In this document: positions 1 through 7,932 of the stretch, piece after piece | Layout: each line of letters opens with the position of its first letter | Numbering within the stretch: the stretch's first letter is position 1 | Source of the DNA: a virus | Direction: 5' to 3' (one strand) | DNA length: 60,474 nucleotides | Virus record (IMG/VR): IMGVR_UViG_3300045988_152007 | Location: 1-60,474 of that record | Translations under genes and position numbers: made by a program | The notes under the pieces: generated by a model | Told to the model about the DNA's origin: nothing | The model's database searches: none | What the model saw: the letters and a program-made list of their open reading frames with translations, nothing else

Positions 1-910
1 AATTAAGAAGAACACCAGTCGGAACAGTATCAAATTCAAGCGTTTTGTAGGCCTCATTATCCCAAACAAATGCAGAGTCTAAACCAGGGTCACGTCCCGC
101 AACCTCACCAATAGTGCCATAGACTAAAACATAATTTACACCATTATTTGTAATACCAATTGACGTTGCTTTTTGATTATTCGTTGTAAAAGGAATATTG
201 GTTGTTATTAATGTCAGTGAAGCTTCATCAACTGGTGCATTATTTTTAATTTTCCATGTTTCTTTACCAATTAATGACATAGAAGTTATTGAGTCTATTG
301 AAGGAATTAGTCTAATTTTATTTTTCTTTTTGTATTTAAACTCATTACTTACTACTTTGAATTTAACGTTTGGATGTTCAGCCAAAGTAATATAAGTAAA
401 ATTACTATTTGCAGAATCTATTTCTACAGTTAAAATAGTCCCTTCAAAATTATGTAATGCAAACTATTTAGTAAAATTATTAATTTTATTATTTATTTTA
501 TAATTTAAATATATTTGTTCATCAACAGTTAATGGACTTATATATTTTGATGTAGTAGTTTCATCACCATTAGGGATAGAAATTGTAAGACCATTTTCAT
601 TGAAATGAGTTATCTTATTTTTTATTTGAGCTTCATTCTAAAATAAAATGCTCCATGTATTAAATTTTTTTTGTTCTTCAGTAAGAACTTCTTCATTATT
701 TATTAAAGCAATTAATGCTAATTTTTCTGCTTGAGTAAAATAATGTTGTTCTATTAAACTAGTTCGTACTGCTGCTTCATCTTTGGTTATTTCAGAGGTA
801 GGAGGAACTATAATACATACTTCTCCTTTAGAAGGAGTGTAATTAGCTCCAATAGTTTCCCAAACAGCAGAGTTTTTAGCTTTAGTATTTACAACAATAT
901 ATCTATTCAT
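1..910 (-). CDS. putative virion/host-interaction protein; N-terminus at 910, runs off window start; in-frame TAG at 638-640 and ~457-459
   Basis: ATG 908-910 with GGAGG upstream. ORF 638..910 ends in TAG and the same frame stays open to position 1 if TAG is sense. Confidence 0.55.
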
Positions 911-1047
911 ATATTCACTCCTCCGTTTTATCTTTTTATACTTCTTCTAATAATAAAAAGATGAGTAAGTTCATTATTAGAACTTACCCATCTTTTCCAA
1001 AGAAACACCAAACAAACAAAAGGAGGATGACAATATTAGAATCTTAG

Positions 1048-1121
1048 TGGACCAGGATAGGAGAATTGAACTCCCAACAGATGATTGGAAATCACCAGTT
1101 TTACCATTAAACTAATCCTGG
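1048..1121 (-). tRNA. tRNA-Gly(TCC)
   Basis: Cloverleaf by hand: acceptor CCAGGAT/ATCCTGG, D-loop AATGGTA, anticodon loop TTTCCAA, T-loop TTCAATT, CCA encoded. Confidence 0.8.
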
Positions 1122-1139
1122 ATATTATTTTATAATTCG

Positions 1140-1540
1140 CAGCATATCGGATGAGGCACTCGCCGTCCGAGTCTTCTACTAAGGGCATATGACCTCCTGT
1201 TCGATGTAATTTTTTTACCTATACTATATGCCACTAATACAATTGGTCCTTTTGTATTTTAATACCAGTGGCGGAATTTAAACCGCACATTAAGAATAAA
1301 CAATAGTATGGTAGCTATGACCCGGTTTCATGGTCGCTTTACAGGATGGCAGTCAAAAGTTGTTACCATTCGCCTAAAATCTCCATCCAAACCTCAAATG
1401 AGGAAAACATCTAAGCCGTATCATTCGGATTTCCCGACTCATTTCGACTTGCGGATTTGTTACCTACCGCCGTACTACCTGCTAACCTTTCTATGTTAGC
1501 CCCGACCCGTCTGTTCAACTGCCGTTAGCTACTATTGTTT
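1140..1540. ncRNA. unassigned GC-rich non-coding block with several hairpins (e.g. GCGG-AATTTAAA-CCGC); candidate structured RNA
   Basis: GC content far above flanking coding DNA; no credible ORF; lies between two tRNA genes. Confidence 0.2.
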
Positions 1541-1594
1541 AATGGTGCCGGTGGCGGGACTCGAACCCGCATGGTGTTGCCACCGAGGGATTTT

Positions 1595-2332
1595 CTTACT
1601 ACTCTATGTCACCATAGCCACATTTTTGTGTTGTAGTCTGGAATACGTCTTTATCATATGCACGACTTGCACTTAGATAGTTGGTATATACTCTCTACAC
1701 ATTTATTTGGAACAATTTTTTCCACGATAAGAAGATGTTTTTGCATGACAATTTGGGCATAATAATTGGAAATTATCTAATTCATTATTAAAATGATTTC
1801 CATCTTTATGATGAAGTTCTAAAGGAATTGGTTCTCCTAACCATTCGGTTAATCCACAACATTCACATTTGTACTCTTTATAACCTTCATCAAGAAGTTT
1901 TTTTCTTACTTTATTACTCTGTATATCAATACTTTTTTCTAAGTATTCTAACAAAGATAATTCATGTCCATTGGGTTTTGACAATCCTTTACAACCTTGA
2001 TTTCCAGCATATTCAAGACCAAGCTTTTTTAATACTGGATTAATTGTTTTAGGATTACAACCCAATTCTCTTGCCATTTGAGCTTTAGTTTTACCTTCAG
2101 TAATCCATTGCTCAATTTCTTCTTTGCGTTCTAAAATATCAGTTCTCATTTATATTACCTCTCTTTCATTATTACTTAAAAATTAAAAAAGGTATTTTAA
2201 TGAGTGTCGTCCAATTTTTTAGAATGTGTTCCAAAACTTAGCACGGCGTTCTCTTAGCCATTCACCGTTTTAGCCAACTTCTGCTCTAAGAGTTTCCTCT
2301 TAGGCACTCCATTTTAACGTTTGCTAAGTCAA
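1595..2332 (-). mobile_element. group I intron (738 nt) in tRNA-Leu anticodon loop, carrying an HNH homing endonuclease
   Basis: 5' exon ends in U and the intron ends in G; P7-like CAGACTA near the 3' end; ORF 1703..2149 lies inside. Confidence 0.65.
1703..2149 (-). CDS. HNH homing endonuclease (intron-encoded), N-terminal HTH
   Basis: ORF track 148 aa; motifs CECCG...ELHHKDGNHFNN...CPNCH. Confidence 0.8.
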   Translation of the reverse strand: MRTDILERKEEIEQWITEGKTKAQMARELGCNPKTINPVLKKLGLEYAGNQGCKGLSKPNGHELSLLEYLEKSIDIQSNKVRKKLLDEGYKEYKCECCGLTEWLGEPIPLELHHKDGNHFNNELDNFQLLCPNCHAKTSSYRGKNCSK

Positions 2333-2465
2333 AAGTCCCTTGTGTCTACCATTCCACCACACCGGCAAATAAACTATATTAATTAAATCAAGACTCAATT
2401 TTGAAAAATAGCAATTCATTTTAGGTGAACTTTCAAAAGTAAATTTGCTGCGTGAGCCTTACGCC

Positions 2466-2540
2466 TGGCACCGGCTCTCAGAGTCGAACTGAGACTTGCT
2501 GATTTAGAGTCAGCTGAGCTAACCGTTACCCAAAGCCGGA
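2466..2540 (-). tRNA. amber suppressor tRNA, anticodon CUA (reads UAG); U1:U72 mismatch and G73 resemble tRNA-Gln identity
   Basis: Acceptor TCCGGCT/AGCCGGT, D-stem with G-U pairs, anticodon stem GCTGA/TCAGC, loop CTCTAAA, T-arm CTCAG-TTCGACT-CTGAG, G73, CCA encoded. Confidence 0.7.
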
Positions 2541-2559
2541 ATATATATACAAGACAGTT

Positions 2560-4040
2560 TAATAAAGTATCTTCTTATGAACCAAAAACATATGATTATC
2601 TTTAATAAAAATTTGCTGAAACTGTCTTAGAGAAATTATCCTAACTTCTCTTTATCTTGTAAATATATTATACTAAATAATTTTTTTAAAATCAAATTAT
2701 TCAGTAGAATATATTTACAAAAATTAATATATCCAATAGGAATAAACTACACCATAGCCACTAACCATTTATAGGTCGCCTCTATGCCTGCCCACGCCAC
2801 TAAGTACTTCAGCTTACCTCATTCATTAGCTATTGGAATATATTAAATTTTTGACCTACCATTAAACTTATAATACCTACCAATAGGAAGTAGAATATAC
2901 AGTTTTTAATAATAGGATTTTCATTCTATAATCTAACACAATAAATAATAACTCTACCTATTATATGTCTTTTTCGTAGTCCATTACGTCTCATTTTCCA
3001 CGCCTTTATATGAGAGACTACCAAGGATCTTATTTCCGCACTTGGTAATGGCTTTTTGGTATGTGAGCCACAAACATCCCTATTCAGCTTATTTATAGTG
3101 GAGAGCTGGCTGGTTTAGCGTATTGTTCCACTACCTAATTAACCAAGATTAGGACGCTAATCAAATATCTGATACGTATCAGTACGGTTTCCAGATATAT
3201 CATTTCACCGGACAACAGGCGAGTCAACCTTATTTGATTAGATTATGTAAGAACCCTACAGCCATAGGAGCAGGTTCCGCAGAGGCCTCTAACGATGTGG
3301 GATTGGCTACCCAATGAGGTTAATGTGCAAGCCACCGCCTATATTAGCATCTACATAATTCATTTCAAATAAATCATTTAATGATTTATTTTTAACAGGA
3401 AAGGAAATCGTAAGTTATTAAATAATAACTTAATTACAATTATACTACGGACCTTCGCCCTACTGGTTAATAATCTTCATTTTATTAGGTAAGTAAGGAA
3501 ACAAGTCTGAGCTATGAATAGCGACTTCATAACTTCTTGCCCCGGCCTAAGCCAAATCTCACAGAGGACTGACTACCTCTATCTTTCACCGACCATTCAG
3601 AATAGTATTACCAATAATTTTTACTAAATTAATATCATACTGTCTTGGCAAATTTCGGCTACTTGACCCTTGACCTTCTCTTATAGTAGATTACGCCACA
3701 TCAATTGCCAACTTCCTTATTGGTATTTCCTTGGTTTGGCAAGGTTACCAGCCTTACCCTAACAAGGATTCGGCATTGCTGTTAACAATGCTGTCTATTA
3801 TGGAAGCGAGAAGAACAGGACCTTAAATGCGATTATCCCAGCACAATCTCCCCGTAGCCGCATCCTTCGATGCGTGAATCTAATGTATCACTACAAAAGA
3901 TTTAGAAATAATTTCAAAGTATCCTTTGAATATTCCATTCTACAATCTCCGCCAGAGTGGATCGATTTCTCAGCCTTATGGTGTTAAGTCTGCACTGAGT
4001 TGTACTATAACCGTAATTAAATTATTATTTAATTTTTAAA
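2560..4040. other. 1.5 kb ORF-free block, AT-rich to 2950 then ~40% GC, with degenerate tRNA-like hairpins; probably transcribed from the promoter at 4060..4088
   Basis: No ORF >=60 aa; anticodon-like hairpin GCATTG-CTGTTAA-CAATGC near 3755; perfect palindrome CTGATACGTATCAG. Confidence 0.25.
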
Positions 4041-4059
4041 GTTCATTTATTATATATAT

Positions 4060-4088
4060 ATTATATAATATTTTTTTTAAATTTTCAA
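4060..4088 (-). promoter_or_regulatory. sigma70-type promoter TTGAAA-N17-TATAAT (minus strand)
   Basis: -35 at 4083-4088 and -10 at 4060-4065 read on the minus strand; member of a conserved ~45-nt motif family. Confidence 0.6.
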
Positions 4089-4149
4089 ATTTTATTTTAA
4101 ATGGTAGGCCAGGTTGGACTTGAACCAACAACCGCATTAAGCACCTGAT

Positions 4150-4575
4150 TTATGGTGTTTGAAACGAGAATCGAACTCGAAATTTATAAGTCTAAAAGCC
4201 TTGATTATTGCTTGTTGGAGCTGTTCGTAAAGTAATCTATTTTGTATTTCCTGATTTTAAAATTTCTTTTAATGGAATTACATACATATTACCTTGAACA
4301 TCTATACAAAATAATAAATCAAGCTCAGAATGATTTAAAACATTATCATAAACAGTTCCTTTAGTACCACCGCAAGATCTTAACATTATAACATTATCCT
4401 AACTTCCAGTACATTTACATTGAACTGTCTAAAATTTACCATTTCGTTCTATAATTAAATCATACCACTGAGTATCATTTAAAGGAGTTGAGACTGTATA
4501 GCCTTTGTCAGTGAAATAGGCAATAGCCATAGCTAATCCAAAACGTCCTTTATCTTTGTTACTTTTTGACTACAA
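4150..4575 (-). CDS. PD-(D/E)XK-family putative homing endonuclease (I-Ssp6803I-like), TTG start, 3 in-frame TAG
   Basis: Paralog of ORFs 5108..5551 and 33991..34464 (shared motifs GKFxxIQCK and DxDxF); reading TAG as Q restores the homologous C-terminus. Confidence 0.55.
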
Positions 4576-4593
4576 AATGAACCTCCTTCAAAC
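4153..4593 (-). mobile_element. 441-nt intervening sequence in tRNA-Tyr, almost entirely occupied by a PD-(D/E)XK endonuclease ORF
   Basis: Flanked by complementary tRNA halves; the ORF stop codon TAA supplies anticodon-loop nucleotides of exon 2. Confidence 0.5.
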
Positions 4594-4633
4594 CAGTCAG
4601 GGGTGATACCAATTACACTGTACTGACCTATAT

Positions 4634-4708
4634 TGGCACTGGTGGCTGGATTTGAACCAACGAATACAGGAGTCAAAGTCCTGTGCCTTACCGCTTGGCG
4701 ACACCAGT
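4634..4708 (-). tRNA. tRNA-Gln(TTG)
   Basis: Acceptor ACTGGTG/CACCAGT, D-arm GCCAAGCGGTAAGGC as in E. coli tRNA-Gln, loop CTTTGAC, G73, CCA. Confidence 0.8.
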
Positions 4709-4749
4709 AAATTATAAGTAATTAATAATTTCTTATTGATTACTTATAT

Positions 4750-4778
4750 ATTATATAATATTTTTTTTTAAAATTCAA
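4750..4778 (-). promoter_or_regulatory. sigma70-type promoter TTGAAT-N17-TATAAT (minus strand)
   Basis: Motif family member; lies directly upstream of tRNA-Gln. Confidence 0.6.
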
Positions 4779-5096
4779 ATTTACAAGACACATTAAATAA
4801 ATTAACTATTATCCTACCCTTTGGATGAATTATCTTAACAGAGATAATATTGGACTTGAACCAATAACACATAGATTTTATCTAATATTTGCTGCGTGTG
4901 TCTTTACTGTTAGTTATTTAACCCCGACAACCTACTAACAAAAGGGATGGTTCAGGGGAGGTTATCTGTGTCATCTAGACCTCATTTTTTCATTCCAATA
5001 CAAATCTACTTAGGGAGATCAATCCTTTTCAATTATGTATCTTTAACAGAACCCTGATGGTCCGAGTGGCGAGACTTGAACTCACGGCCTCTTGAT

Positions 5097-5575
5097 CCAG
5101 GAAAATCTTAGATTGTCTTTAAGACCTCCTCAATTTTGTAATCATTAGCGATATGAATACCCTGTTTTTGACCAGATGAAGGATATTCATACCGCCATCT
5201 AAAAGTTGCACCAGTAGCTTCTTCAATGGAAACTAAATATCCTTGGCCTTCAAACCAAGTATAAAAATAATCAATATCATCTTTTGAATACTTATGACGA
5301 GTAGTAGATTTTGTATTAGTGGTAATACAACTTGTAGCAATTGCAAAAGCTACATTAGGTTCTTTTGTATCAGTAACCCAAGAAGATGTTTTACATTGAA
5401 TACGGATAAATTTACCCATCCCCATATCAGCTACTACATCATATTTAGAACTTTCATCAACAGATTTTAAACATCTATATCCAAGATTAGTTAAATCAAG
5501 AATACATCTTAACTCTGTTACAGTTCCTTTCTGTTGAGTAATATCTAACATATTTTTTAGACAAAAATCTCTTTT
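5097..5575 (-). mobile_element. 479-nt intervening sequence in tRNA-Pro carrying a PD-(D/E)XK endonuclease ORF
   Basis: Flanking halves complete the cloverleaf; the ORF fills 444 of 479 nt. Confidence 0.5.
5108..5551 (-). CDS. PD-(D/E)XK-family putative homing endonuclease (I-Ssp6803I-like)
   Basis: ORF track 147 aa; paralog of the 4150..4575 and 33991..34428 ORFs. Confidence 0.7.
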   Translation of the reverse strand: MLDITQQKGTVTELRCILDLTNLGYRCLKSVDESSKYDVVADMGMGKFIRIQCKTSSWVTDTKEPNVAFAIATSCITTNTKSTTRHKYSKDDIDYFYTWFEGQGYLVSIEEATGATFRWRYEYPSSGQKQGIHIANDYKIEEVLKTI

Positions 5576-5618
5576 CCCAAATCAAGCGTTCTACCAAACT
5601 GAACTACACCCGGATATA

Positions 5619-5638
5619 AAGGGTAATTAATTACCCTT
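5619..5638 (-). terminator. hairpin AAGGGTAATTAATTACCCTT downstream of gene 5644..6009
   Basis: Perfect 8-bp stem immediately after the stop codon. Confidence 0.4.
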
Positions 5639-5643
5639 ATTTA

Positions 5644-6009
5644 TTACATTTCCTTAGCGAGTCTTTCAACTACGCTATCATACATTTCCTTACCTCTTGC
5701 ACTATCATTGAAATACACAGTCATATCATCATAATACTTCTGTGCCTTCTCAAGTGCCTTAGCAGCTTCATCAAGCTTCTTAGTAGCACGCTTCAGACGC
5801 TGAGAACTGACCTTCGCCTGGCAACGTGCTGCGGCAAGCTGCTTACCCTTTTCAGTATCAAATGTATCCTTCGGATCACACTTGGCTACACCACGCACAG
5901 TCCTACCAGCATAAGTAGAAACTGCAACAACCTTATACGGCGTACCATCTGCCTTAGTGGGAATAAAATACTTGTACTTATCCAGAGAATATTCCATAAC
6001 TTTTAACAC
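5644..6009 (-). CDS. hypothetical protein (121 aa), GC-richer than neighbours
   Basis: ORF track; promoter motif directly upstream. Confidence 0.6.
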   Translation of the reverse strand: MLKVMEYSLDKYKYFIPTKADGTPYKVVAVSTYAGRTVRGVAKCDPKDTFDTEKGKQLAAARCQAKVSSQRLKRATKKLDEAAKALEKAQKYYDDMTVYFNDSARGKEMYDSVVERLAKEM

Positions 6010-6047
6010 CTTTTTCTCATTTATTTTTTTCTTTATTTTGTATATAT

Positions 6048-6076
6048 ATTATATACTATTTTTTTAATTTTTTCAA
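6048..6076 (-). promoter_or_regulatory. sigma70-type promoter TTGAAA-N17-TATAAT (minus strand)
   Basis: Motif family member. Confidence 0.6.
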
Positions 6077-6191
6077 ATAAAAGAAAATAGCCAAGATTAG
6101 AATTGCCAGCAGTTTTGAGTCCCGGCCATCTAGAATCTATTAACTAGAAACGGTTTTATTAACTATCCAATCTTGGCTAATGGTATAATAA

Positions 6192-6839
6192 TTAAGCATA
6201 TTTCCATTTAAACTTAGCAGCTGTATTTCGTTTACATTTGCATACTTCAGAAATATGTTGTTTTATAGTAGTCATTTTACAATTAGTTAATTTATTTTCT
6301 ACCATAAATTTAGCTGCTTCAGTTGTTGATGGAAAAGTCCTTAAATAATTATCATTTAAATCATACATATTAATTATTTTCCCATACTTATTTTGAACTA
6401 TTTTAGCATTAGGAATAATATCAATTTTATATAATTTTAAAATTTTAGAAACTGAATCTTCACTAATATTTAATTGTTTAGCAGTATCTACAATACATTG
6501 TAAATTCTTATATGTTTCGCATACTAAATCATAGTCAATATATTGTTTGCCATCTCCGCCAATTGTAGCGTTATATCCATATTTAAAAGAACCTAATTTT
6601 TCAATCCAATAAACTTCTTTATCATTAAGTTCTTCTAATGGACATTCCTCTAACTCTTTAATAGAAAAATTTTCTGAACCATATTTATTCATTGCGTCAT
6701 ATAAAGGACGTTTTTCACATCTAGGTTTTTTATAATCTTTAAGATGTTCTTTCCAACGTTCCTAAATATTATTTTTTACTGTTTTACCAACATAAATTTT
6801 TCCATTAATATTATTTGTTATCTAATAAATGTATGCCAT
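6192..6839 (-). CDS. GIY-YIG homing endonuclease (I-TevI-like) with two in-frame TAG
   Basis: N-terminus MAYIYQITNNINGKIYVGKT...ERW matches the I-TevI GIYQI...KVYVGS...KRW motif; a TAG sits at the conserved Q (6822-6824). Confidence 0.8.
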
Positions 6840-6918
6840 ATCTAAATGACTCCTTTAATAAATAATTGTGAAATTAGTTAAAACACTATCGCCACGAGAA
6901 GGCTTTCACATAATAGCG

Positions 6919-6991
6919 AGCCGGCAGACGGATTCGAACCCCCGACCTATTGATTACAAATCAATTGCACTACCAACTGTGCTATGCCGGC
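6919..6991 (-). tRNA. tRNA-Thr(TGT)
   Basis: Acceptor GCCGGCA/TGCCGGC, D-arm GCACAGTTGGTAGTGC, loop TTTGTAA, T-loop TTCGAAT; no CCA encoded. Confidence 0.7.
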
Positions 6992-7031
6992 ATTTAAGAG
7001 AGAATTTATTTTTCCCTCAATTTCTATATAT

Positions 7032-7060
7032 ATTATATAAAATTTTTTTTAAATTTTCAA
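7032..7060 (-). promoter_or_regulatory. sigma70-type promoter TTGAAA-N17-TATAAT (minus strand)
   Basis: Motif family member. Confidence 0.6.
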
Positions 7061-7932
7061 ATTATACAACATAAATAATGTGCTAATTCTAATTGATATT
7101 CTTGCTTAAAGAAAAAAGGAACTATTGAAAAAATTATAGTGAATACATCATTTCGACCGCTTAATTTAAAGCTGTTATAAAATAATGGTAAATATTTTTC
7201 ACATATTTCATTATAAGTAATTTGATCATTCTTATAATGAAAATTCTTTAAAGGATCATCACTTTTTAATGTTTTACATTTTAAAATATCTTTTGAAGTT
7301 ACTTCTTCATATAAAGTTATTTTAGCAAATCCATTATAATGTTTATATAAATATGGACAAATAATCGGGCAAGGGTCATTGCATAAAAGTTCAAATCTAT
7401 TTCTTACTTCTATTGGAATTGATTCTAAAAACTTAAAATCTTTTATTTGTCTTCGAGGTAAAACAATTTTATCATATTTATTTAAAAGAGACAAATAATC
7501 TGTATTTTTATTTGAAGCTATTATACTTCTTTTAATTTTAAATTTAGGATATTTATTTCTTATATATTCTTCTAAAATAGAGGAAGAAACTAAAATTGAA
7601 TTATTTTCATTTTCACATAAGGAAACGATTTTATTACAATATCTATCATACAAGTCTTCTTTTGTTAATAATGGATTTGTTAAGGTTAAAGCAATTTCTA
7701 TATTATTTCCATAATAAAAATCAATAATTTCTTTTATTTTTTCTAATGAAGGTTGATAGCCTTGATTGACAGTTCCTCCATTCCAAATCATATTTGGGAA
7801 TGTATCGAATATACTCTCTATAGCTACATTAAAATTGAAACATTCTGGAGCTGTCTATTGTAATTCTAAAAGAGTTTTATATATATTAAATCCAGTATAA
7901 AATCCTGGACAATTTAAATTTATTTTTTTCAT
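7057..7932 (-). CDS. hypothetical protein, paralog family A (NIWNGG / FYxG motif), one in-frame TAG
   Basis: ORF 7057..7791 extends upstream through a TAG to ATG ~7932 (MKKINLNCPGFYTGF...). Confidence 0.55.

Follow-up and report, generated by a model that had tools for sequence, protein, structure and literature searches.

The analysed stretch of DNA (hereafter the window) covers 60,474 nucleotides of the IMG/VR virus record IMGVR_UViG_3300045988_152007, and the block considered here occupies its positions 2560..4040. The minus strand accounts for the whole block, which is composed of a ROOL RNA gene, a second large structured RNA designated RNA-2, and the promoter/leader cassette of a suppressor tRNA. 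The same strand carries all 13 tRNA genes found by ARAGORN, together with essentially all long ORFs. As originally predicted, the block has no ORF of 60 aa or longer, the longest overlapping one under table 11 having 37 aa. TAG is a sense codon in this phage: reading through it nearly doubles the long-ORF content (ORFs of 150 aa or more then cover 51.9 kb instead of 30.5 kb), and the recoding is accompanied by a tRNA with the anticodon CUA at 2466..2540 on the minus strand. A PHROGs search with the large ORFs did not classify the phage. Overall, as far as identity and architecture are concerned, the block very probably represents a minus-strand transcription unit with two large structured ncRNAs in the tRNA island of a TAG-recoded uncultivated phage.

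The base composition follows this division. ROOL has a GC content of 38.7% and RNA-2 of 37.2%, with 46.7% in the first module of RNA-2 (module A), while the promoter and spacer stretches have 18–19% and the coding DNA 29–32%. The previously noted rise to about 40% against 28% thus describes the RNA cores, whose bodies have 37–39%, and not the block in its entirety (34.5%).

A sigma-70-type promoter-like site (TTGAAA-17-TATAAT, 4060..4088, minus strand) is located about 35 nt upstream of ROOL and points into the block, in line with the original prediction; with 11 of 12 matching positions, it is a match to the consensus only. The ROOL gene (Rfam RF03087) occupies 3430..4023 on the minus strand and was identified at once by the Infernal/Rfam scan proposed earlier. 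The cmscan score, 323 bits, exceeds the gathering cut-off of 99.1, the E-value is 1e-73 (1.4e-73), and model positions 1–574 of 574 were aligned over 594 nt without truncation, which corresponds to a full-length gene of complete architecture. ROOL is known as an RNA of about 580 nt (family mean 581 nt) of phages and prophages, often encoded near tRNA islands (PMC5737381), and a phage-like TAG-recoded genome with 13 same-strand tRNAs in the window is the setting expected for it. The element at 3430..4023 is a bona fide ROOL RNA and adds a new member to an established family. By cryo-EM, the ROOL RNA env-120 forms an RNA-only homo-octameric cage (PMC12286853). The hairpin GCATTG-CTGTTAA-CAATGC, which had been read as anticodon-like, is indeed present at 3773..3791; it aligns to a hairpin of the ROOL model.

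Downstream of ROOL follows an A/U-rich spacer of about 67 nt (3362..3429, minus strand, 18% GC), which contains two A/U hairpins but lacks a T-run terminator. The terminator scan made no minus-strand call in it, and the only call within the block was at 3771..3793 on the plus strand. The rest of the block down to about 2720 (approximately 2720..3361, minus strand) belongs to a previously uncatalogued family of large RNAs, RNA-2, with a length of about 640 nt. Rfam 15 gave no match in 2650..3400 even at E ≤ 10, with the ROOL, GOLLD and intron models included, and the same was true for the RNA-2 of a distant member, L059 (9470..9990; L numbers denote individual loci), again with GOLLD included at E ≤ 10. 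At Rfam gathering thresholds, nothing was detected on RNA-2 in 28 loci, the tRNA, ROOL and partial OLE matches all being elsewhere in these loci. The suggestion that the block might hold an unrecognised ncRNA therefore applies to 2720..3361, which is conserved, structured and absent from Rfam 15, and fails for 3430..4023, where the RNA is a recognised one.

The collection of homologues proceeded in three steps. First, scanning IMG/VR for a ROOL motif gave a 98% relative (L012) and the distant L015, a 402-kb phage contig having several blocks in common with 3133..3353 of the window, the palindrome described below among them. One of these shared blocks, CTGCTCCTATGGCTGNAGG, was then used to scan viral, genome and metagenome sequences. 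The loop motif was present in 36 viral loci, 31 of which contained RNA-2 and five of which were tRNA-like chimeras. Among 25 matches in genomes, 11 were true RNA-2, every one on contigs of metagenome-assembled genomes (MAGs); isolate genomes yielded no RNA-2, the remaining matches being chance occurrences in ORFs. The metagenomes contributed 106 stretches, and the full 5′ domain of RNA-2 was found in 62 among the 80 listed. Further members were gained in a second scan that did not depend on the CTGCTCCTATGGCTGNAGG block, which brought the total to about 97–100 distinct copies in viral, MAG and metagenome contigs of uncultivated origin. As the members were fetched mainly by an exact 18-nt pattern of the P3 loop, with only nine found independently, the invariance of this loop is partly a matter of ascertainment. 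The relatives retained both the sequence and the structure of the region; among the relatives of the contig are the records IMGVR_UViG_3300045988_164919 and IMGVR_UViG_3300045988_166471. BLAST against 50,697 GenBank phage records, with the 871-nt unassigned part of the block and modules A + B of L059 as queries, detected RNA-2 in no cultured phage, and the only matches obtained were to the promoter cassette and to a 23-nt chance match. Searching the literature for the conserved motifs and for tRNA-island RNAs revealed no description of RNA-2, albeit catalogues of candidate RNAs may list it anonymously; for instance, fragments of it could be present among the 8,495 candidate structured RNAs compiled from IMG/VR (PMC10690425).

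The helices of RNA-2 were drawn by eye from the alignments, and two covariance models, R1 and R2, were built, with which the members were realigned. The pair counts reported below are biased towards the structure because the alignments were fitted to R1 and R2 themselves; this bias is mitigated by slid and shuffled controls and by variants checked by hand. According to these models, the window has modules A and B adjacent and in tandem at 3148..3361, with scores of 89.6 bits (R1) and 85.7 bits (R2). This fit is by construction since the window sequence was included in the seed alignments; independent members scored 60–117 bits.

Module A (3240..3361, minus strand) is a pseudoknotted three-way junction, supported by the R1 score and by covariation. 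Its closing helix P1 (9 bp, 3359-3351/3250-3242) meets P2 (4 bp, 3349-3346/3281-3278) and the P3 hairpin (3277-3251), which carries the apical loop CCUAU at 3268-3264. The junction strand AAUAUAGG (3345-3338) leads into P4 (GGCGGNN/NNUCGU, 3338-3333/3297-3292), and P5 (3302-3299/3289-3286) forms a pseudoknot that wraps the 3′ strand of P4. Finally, the P3 loop pairs with AUAGG at 3342-3338 in a kissing helix. In the alignment of 36 sequences, 97.6% of the cells were paired compared to 36–56% in the slid controls, and both sides had changed in 232 cells compared to 18–47. P5 paired perfectly in 64 of 85 distinct sequences, with more than 30 strand combinations, whereas permuted partners gave a mean of 23 and a maximum of 34. 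The kissing helix (reference AUAGG:CCUAU) covaried in members that had been found without the loop motif: compensatory CAUAC:GUAUG in L017, compensatory AUCAGG:CCUGAU in L213, and AUAGGG:CCCUAU in L245, where the inner stem changed as well from GCU/GGC to GUU/AAC. A G·U wobble was seen in L241. Taken with module B, these data show a 5′ core of RNA-2 in which two pseudoknots and a kissing helix between loop and strand hold the three-way junction in place, with the four-way junction coming next.

A further idea, that the kissing helix imitates the pairing between an amber codon and a CUA anticodon and so relates RNA-2 to the TAG recoding, was considered and rejected. The CAUAC:GUAUG and AUCAGG:CCUGAU variants lack UAG:CUA, so the codon-anticodon pairing is not conserved; moreover, the read-through ORF metric, which is noisy on short tRNA-rich stretches, shows no recoding in many of the phages with RNA-2. 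The motifs GGUGAAA and GGUAAG may resemble those of RNase P or double T-loops; Rfam gave no RNase P match to RNA-2.

RNA-2 always lies within tRNA arrays and has the same orientation as the tRNAs. For 28 of 38 loci, only 0–45 nt separate the start of module A from the 3′ end of a preceding tRNA encoded on its strand, and often an encoded CCA comes immediately before it; the next tRNA lies 320–1000 nt from the RNA-2 start. In many loci the distance to the upstream CCA is only 0–10 nt. Such a position, together with the compact and multiply pseudoknotted core, its near-invariant junction nucleotides, and the presence nearby of a RAGATH-33 RNA (1417..1529, by Rfam scan) and homing endonuclease genes, would suit a new self-cleaving ribozyme that cuts the junction between tRNA and RNA-2, like the small ribozymes in phage RAGATH contexts. 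We regard this as unlikely. No Rfam ribozyme family matches, and module A in particular gave no Rfam match to the hammerhead, twister, twister-sister, hatchet, pistol or HDV-like models. The lineage of the window has ROOL and not a tRNA directly upstream of RNA-2, the module A core also occurs inside tRNA-like scaffolds which cleavage would destroy, and ordinary tRNA 3′ processing suffices for the junction.

Module B (3148..3248, minus strand) is a four-way junction, supported by the R2 score and by covariation. It is closed by P9 (about 12 bp, 3241-3231/3167-3157) and contains P6 (3230-3228/3219-3217), P7 with the conserved loop UGAAAUGAUAUAU (3207-3195), and P8 (3182-3169), a hairpin of 5 bp with an ACGU loop. 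In 34 sequences, 92.8% of the cells were paired (slid controls, 33–45%), and changes on both sides affected 200 cells (controls, 40–52). P8 is identical to the perfect palindrome CTGATACGTATCAG pointed out earlier at 3169..3182, and it is conserved and covarying in the relatives. Palindromes were also examined as dimerisation signals, and for P8 this was rejected: its ACGU loop is often UCGU or ACCU in relatives, so that it is simply a hairpin. As for the palindrome GAUAUAUC in the P7 loop, it might serve as a dimerisation signal, which is a weak lead.

Since the phage reads TAG as sense, the ORF check of the block was repeated with TAG read-through, which opened stop-to-stop frames of up to 122 codons on the plus strand and 102 codons on the minus strand, including those in 2720..3361. 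An evident question was whether this region is protein-coding after all and appears free of ORFs only under the standard code. Besides the gain in long-ORF content of the phage mentioned above, it speaks for this that 11 of 26 homologues have at least one frame without a stop through the 5′ core of RNA-2. However, this proportion is close to chance for about 200 nt, six frames and two stop codons, and on inspection the frames in the window had no support as genes, as they lack convincing starts and cross helix boundaries. The hairpin-length indels are not multiples of three (module A varies from 94 to 137 nt across homologues), the substitutions in helices are compensatory, and the GC content is above that of the coding DNA. 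A recoded gene is, therefore, extremely improbable here.

Beyond the 5′ core, RNA-2 continues into a middle domain (2950..3147, minus strand) with a pseudoknot-like series GCGU..CCUAAUC..AUUAGG..ACGC..AACCAG and, after it, lineage-specific helices. Between the window and L037, the changes in this domain were compensatory: CCTAATC/ATTAGG became CCTAGTC/ACTAGG, TGGCT/AGCCA became TAGCT/AGCTA, and ACCAAG/CTTGGT became ATCAAG/CTTGAT. The pseudoknot theme recurs in other groups of members. The 3′ region (2717..2949, minus strand) includes a closing helix (2837-2830/2739-2732), the segment GAGGUAAG (2820-2813), and an element GCAUAGAG-GCGA-CC..GG-UUAGUG-GCUAUGG-UGUAG at about 2787-2746 that is common to the members of the L015 group. 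This element, with covarying helices, is also present in L015, L034, L045, L078, L085 and L090, in the order GGUA, helix 1, GCGA, helix 2, UUAGCG, helix 1′, AGUAG, and it covaries between the window group and the L015 group. The element is enclosed by the closing helix and followed by a U-run (2725-2717 in the window, its probable 3′ end), which places the 3′ end of RNA-2 probably near 2720 and gives the length of about 640 nt. The family is modular: members of the "short" group have only about 300 nt, a member of the main group has about 480 nt, and L066 and L017 have no module B. The stretch 2720..3361 may be a single RNA, or it may consist of a 5′ core accompanied by distinct 3′ modules. 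Single-sequence folding of 2730..3345 gave z-scores of −1.5 and −0.9 on the two strands. An RNAalifold structure from the six close relatives of the window was discarded as energy-driven and contradicting the family-level helices.

The block ends at 2551..2695 with a conserved cassette, separate from RNA-2, that serves as promoter and leader of the amber-suppressor tRNA. It consists of a promoter-like site TTGATT-17-TATAAT (2667..2695, minus strand), which matches the consensus and is part of a repeated cassette, and of a leader hairpin AAGACAGUUU...AAACUGUCUU (2551..2627, minus strand) read from the sequence, with homologous hairpins in the L015 group. The hairpin abuts the tRNA with the anticodon CUA, which is the downstream neighbour outside the block (ARAGORN; Rfam tRNA score of 49 bits). 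The same cassette precedes tRNAs in L015, L034, L045 and L078, and it is the only part of the block matching a GenBank phage record.

With this tRNA downstream, RNA-2 could be viewed as a cis-acting leader, that is, a riboswitch-like or T-box-like attenuator controlling the suppressor, the more so since its terminal helix and U-run could end transcription, suppressor tRNAs are present in 16 of 38 RNA-2 loci, and the common kissing helix happens to include UAG:CUA. The cassette between RNA-2 and the tRNA speaks against it, as the suppressor has a conserved promoter and leader of its own. Furthermore, the tRNA downstream of RNA-2 changes with the lineage (Gly, Pro, His, Ser, Leu, Thr, Gln or suppressor), the UAG:CUA pairing is lost in the variants of L017 and L213, and many of the phages with RNA-2 give no sign of TAG recoding by the same noisy metric. 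Control of the suppressor in cis is, thus, very unlikely, and a large RNA made in its own right is the preferred reading of RNA-2.

The linkage of RNA-2 to ROOL depends on the lineage. In that of the window, ROOL is the upstream neighbour of RNA-2 and is itself preceded by a tRNA-Tyr. When a strict ROOL core motif was used, at least 23 of the 97 distinct RNA-2 copies had ROOL upstream of them in the same orientation, and this motif was never found downstream of RNA-2 or on the opposite strand in the 97 copies. Rfam confirmed ROOL beside RNA-2 in L015, L034, L037, L045, L078, L079 and L144. Other orders occurred as well: RNA-2 is upstream of ROOL in L017, and in L091 ROOL lies 4.5 kb downstream. 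In the main RNA-2 group, no ROOL was present within the stretches examined.

Apart from tRNA arrays, the module A core occurs in tRNA-like chimeras (L041, L043, L052, L056, L063 and about four metagenome loci). In these molecules of 115–118 nt, the strand AAUAUAGG is present as in RNA-2, and so is the P3 hairpin including its loop, for which reason the kissing fold is presumably shared too. The core replaces the anticodon arm and the variable region in a body with D, T and acceptor arms of the tRNA-Leu type. In contrast to RNA-2, the chimeras have neither the P4/P5 pseudoknot nor module B, and their surroundings are not tRNA arrays but, for example, replication or packaging modules.

The existence of such scaffolds in a few distant phages, the position of the block in a tRNA island, and two tRNA genes near the block truly split by insertions of endonuclease genes might suggest that the block is made of degenerate tRNA genes or remnants of tRNA introns, as originally considered. 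Neither reading is borne out. Consistent with the earlier failure to assemble a complete cloverleaf, ARAGORN detected no tRNA in 2560..4040 and Rfam gave no tRNA, group I or group II intron match there at E ≤ 5; for the introns, the Intron_gpI and group II models were also without a match in 1..7200 at E ≤ 5 and in 2650..3400 at E ≤ 10. The T-arm-like segments were not substantiated either; neither ARAGORN nor an Rfam search at E ≤ 5 picked up a tRNA or a fragment of one. Of the elements cited, the hairpin is a helix of ROOL and the palindrome one of RNA-2, and the conserved sequence covaries according to a fold that is not that of a tRNA. Decayed tRNAs or introns are therefore hardly a tenable explanation; what had looked tRNA-like belongs to helices of ROOL and RNA-2.

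In context and size class, RNA-2 resembles ROOL and GOLLD, and it fails membership in both. With ROOL it shares the phage tRNA arrays, the tRNA strand, the size class, the multiple pseudoknots and the lack of an associated protein gene, and the two are physically linked in many phages. In comparison, RNA-2 matches the ROOL model in neither sequence nor structure at E ≤ 10. ROOL closes on a long 5′/3′ helix, whereas RNA-2 has a local three-way-junction core at the 5′ end and lineage-specific 3′ parts, and it has more strictly conserved nucleotides. GOLLD (RF01998) is a large ornate RNA of phages and prophages, encoded near or within tRNA arrays and consisting of a conserved and a variable half (PMC12286853). 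RNA-2 is likewise a large ornate RNA of tRNA arrays, modular in its conserved and variable halves. However, in GOLLD the 3′ region is the conserved part and the 5′ end the variable one, while in RNA-2 conservation is found in the 5′ core and in a short 3′ element, the middle being variable; no RF01998 match was obtained at E ≤ 10, and the pattern of a conserved 3′ region is absent. OLE and raiA are large conserved ncRNAs of bacterial chromosomes with complex folds, for which homo-oligomeric or compact structures have been solved. They are similar to RNA-2 in size, conservation and complexity of the fold and differ from it in their chromosomal bacterial context, with no model match.

As to how the two RNAs might be made and work, the promoter at 4088..4060 would drive a ROOL–RNA-2 precursor ending at the closing helix and U-run near 2720, since no terminator is present between ROOL and RNA-2 and a single promoter could serve both. 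The RNAs may be released by tRNA-processing and other RNases acting on the flanking tRNAs and spacers, judging from most relatives, in which RNA-2 starts 0–45 nt after a tRNA and stops just before the next one. ROOL would form an RNA-only octameric cage, as a member of its family. RNA-2, as far as it can be read from sequence, may be a processed, stable and self-folded RNA particle that works like ROOL and GOLLD. It could act in the same phage process as ROOL, linked to tRNA supply and translation takeover, maybe self-assembling or alongside ROOL. We tentatively propose that RNA-2 is a third "ornate" class of tRNA-island RNA beside GOLLD and ROOL and a partner of ROOL, produced on the same transcript and either forming an RNA-only assembly of its own or docking to, loading or regulating the cage, with a triple-pseudoknotted 5′ head as a portable functional unit that some phages would graft onto a tRNA body. 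This proposal is possible and still rather doubtful, and the specific role as a ROOL partner or in self-assembly is just as speculative.

Large and intricately folded RNAs of bacteria and phages are rare, and the known classes are either ribozymes or RNA-only cages. For ROOL and GOLLD, whose structures have been solved, we know of no established function. RNA-2 widens the set of tRNA-island RNAs by a family with strong covariation, a compact pseudoknotted core and a recurrent order of ROOL followed by RNA-2. The link between the two is testable through co-expression, co-assembly and action on phage tRNAs. If RNA-2 were indeed a partner of ROOL, it would offer the first genetic and biochemical handle on the purpose of the ROOL cage. 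For annotation, ORF-free and GC-enriched blocks in the tRNA islands of uncultivated phages should be screened for structured RNA and not taken for tRNA debris.

Two further observations concern the surroundings of the block. BLAST of its 8-kb neighbourhood against GenBank phages matched only the homing endonuclease genes that lie near it, and insertions of endonuclease genes also interrupt the two neighbouring tRNA genes mentioned above, tRNA-Tyr and tRNA-Pro, which may be dead genes or may carry a new kind of intron. The hexamers of the promoter-like site at 4088..4060 were seen again at 7060..7032 and 6076..6048.

In the tRNA-Tyr(GUA) gene at window 4102..4629 (-), an insertion of 441 nt (4153..4593) separates G34 from U35 precisely; it is missing from L012, a 98% relative. 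Almost the whole insertion is one ORF matching Pfam PDDEXK_5 (57 bits), the family of I-Ssp6803I-type homing endonucleases; TAG occurs four times in frame within this ORF, and U35-A36-A37 of the tRNA itself serve as the TAA stop. No group I or group II intron signal was detected in the insertion, and the terminal bases, G for the 5' exon and A for the insertion, are inconsistent with a group I intron. The insertion termini are able to pair (GUUUGAA/UUCAAAC). The split gene is either a dead tRNA gene or the carrier of an unrecognised kind of tRNA intron.

The tRNA-Pro(UGG) gene (window 5058..5613, (-)) is interrupted in a similar way, with the break in, or adjoining, the anticodon. Its insertion of approximately 476-479 nt, whose junction is ambiguous by 3 nt (GGA), is likewise missing from L012, contains a second PDDEXK_5 endonuclease ORF (5108..5551, 69 bits) and has termini capable of pairing (UUGUCU/AGACAA). 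A third insertion relative to L012 (6183..6918, (-)) directly follows the 3' end of tRNA-Thr and contains a NUMOD1-domain ORF of the homing-endonuclease type (6192..6839); given this location, the latter is a free-standing homing endonuclease gene of the tRNA island. An HNH-type ORF is present at 1703..2149.

In the window phage, TAG appears to be translated as a sense codon. Allowing TAG read-through increased the long-ORF content of the whole window 1.7-fold, many long ORFs have 1-12 in-frame TAGs each, and the phage has its own gene for an amber-suppressor tRNA (CUA) at 2466..2540 (-). ORFs close to the tRNA island, such as the second PDDEXK_5 ORF and the HNH-type ORF, are free of TAG.

A promoter and leader-hairpin cassette is located at window 2551..2695 (-) and was also found in the loci L015, L034, L045, L078, L001, L007 and L013, being repeated several times per tRNA array. 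Its strong predicted promoter, TTGATTTT...TGTATAATATATA, is followed by a leader hairpin, AAGAC...CAGCAA...GUCUU, whose end coincides with the 5' end of the tRNA. Within the ORF-free block 2560..4040, the GenBank phage match (MT835855) was limited to this cassette.

Parts of RNA-2, one of the two structured RNAs of the block, recur outside tRNA arrays in tRNA-like chimera genes (L063 3965..4079; L056 2936..3053; L041 6518..6603; L043 420..503; L052 3094..3177; and further ones in L149, L151, L153 and L163). These chimeras of 115-118 nt have acceptor, D and T arms of the tRNA-Leu type; where a tRNA would have its anticodon arm and variable region, they carry the AAUAUAGG strand, a small hairpin and the RNA-2 P3 hairpin. 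ARAGORN made no call on them; the Rfam tRNA model scored 38-43 bits. The L041 chimera is flanked by recombination and replication genes, and that of L063 follows a terminase-small-subunit-like gene.

Partial matches to the Rfam OLE RNA (53 bits; cut-off 50) occur in L015 (2050..2137), L034 (187..276) and L045 (10084..10167), inside phage tRNA arrays that also carry ROOL and RNA-2; the Rfam search gave no OLE match in the window. They cover only model positions ~437-594 and could be false positives or reflect a sub-motif common to both RNAs.

The window region 1130..1700 is GC-rich (39-46%), lacks a long ORF and may contain further non-coding RNAs. It surrounds a RAGATH-33 RNA (RF03102; 1417..1529, (-); 139 bits, cut-off 120), adjoined by a weak tmRNA/tRNA-like match at 1543..1613 (16.5 bits, E=0.0015).
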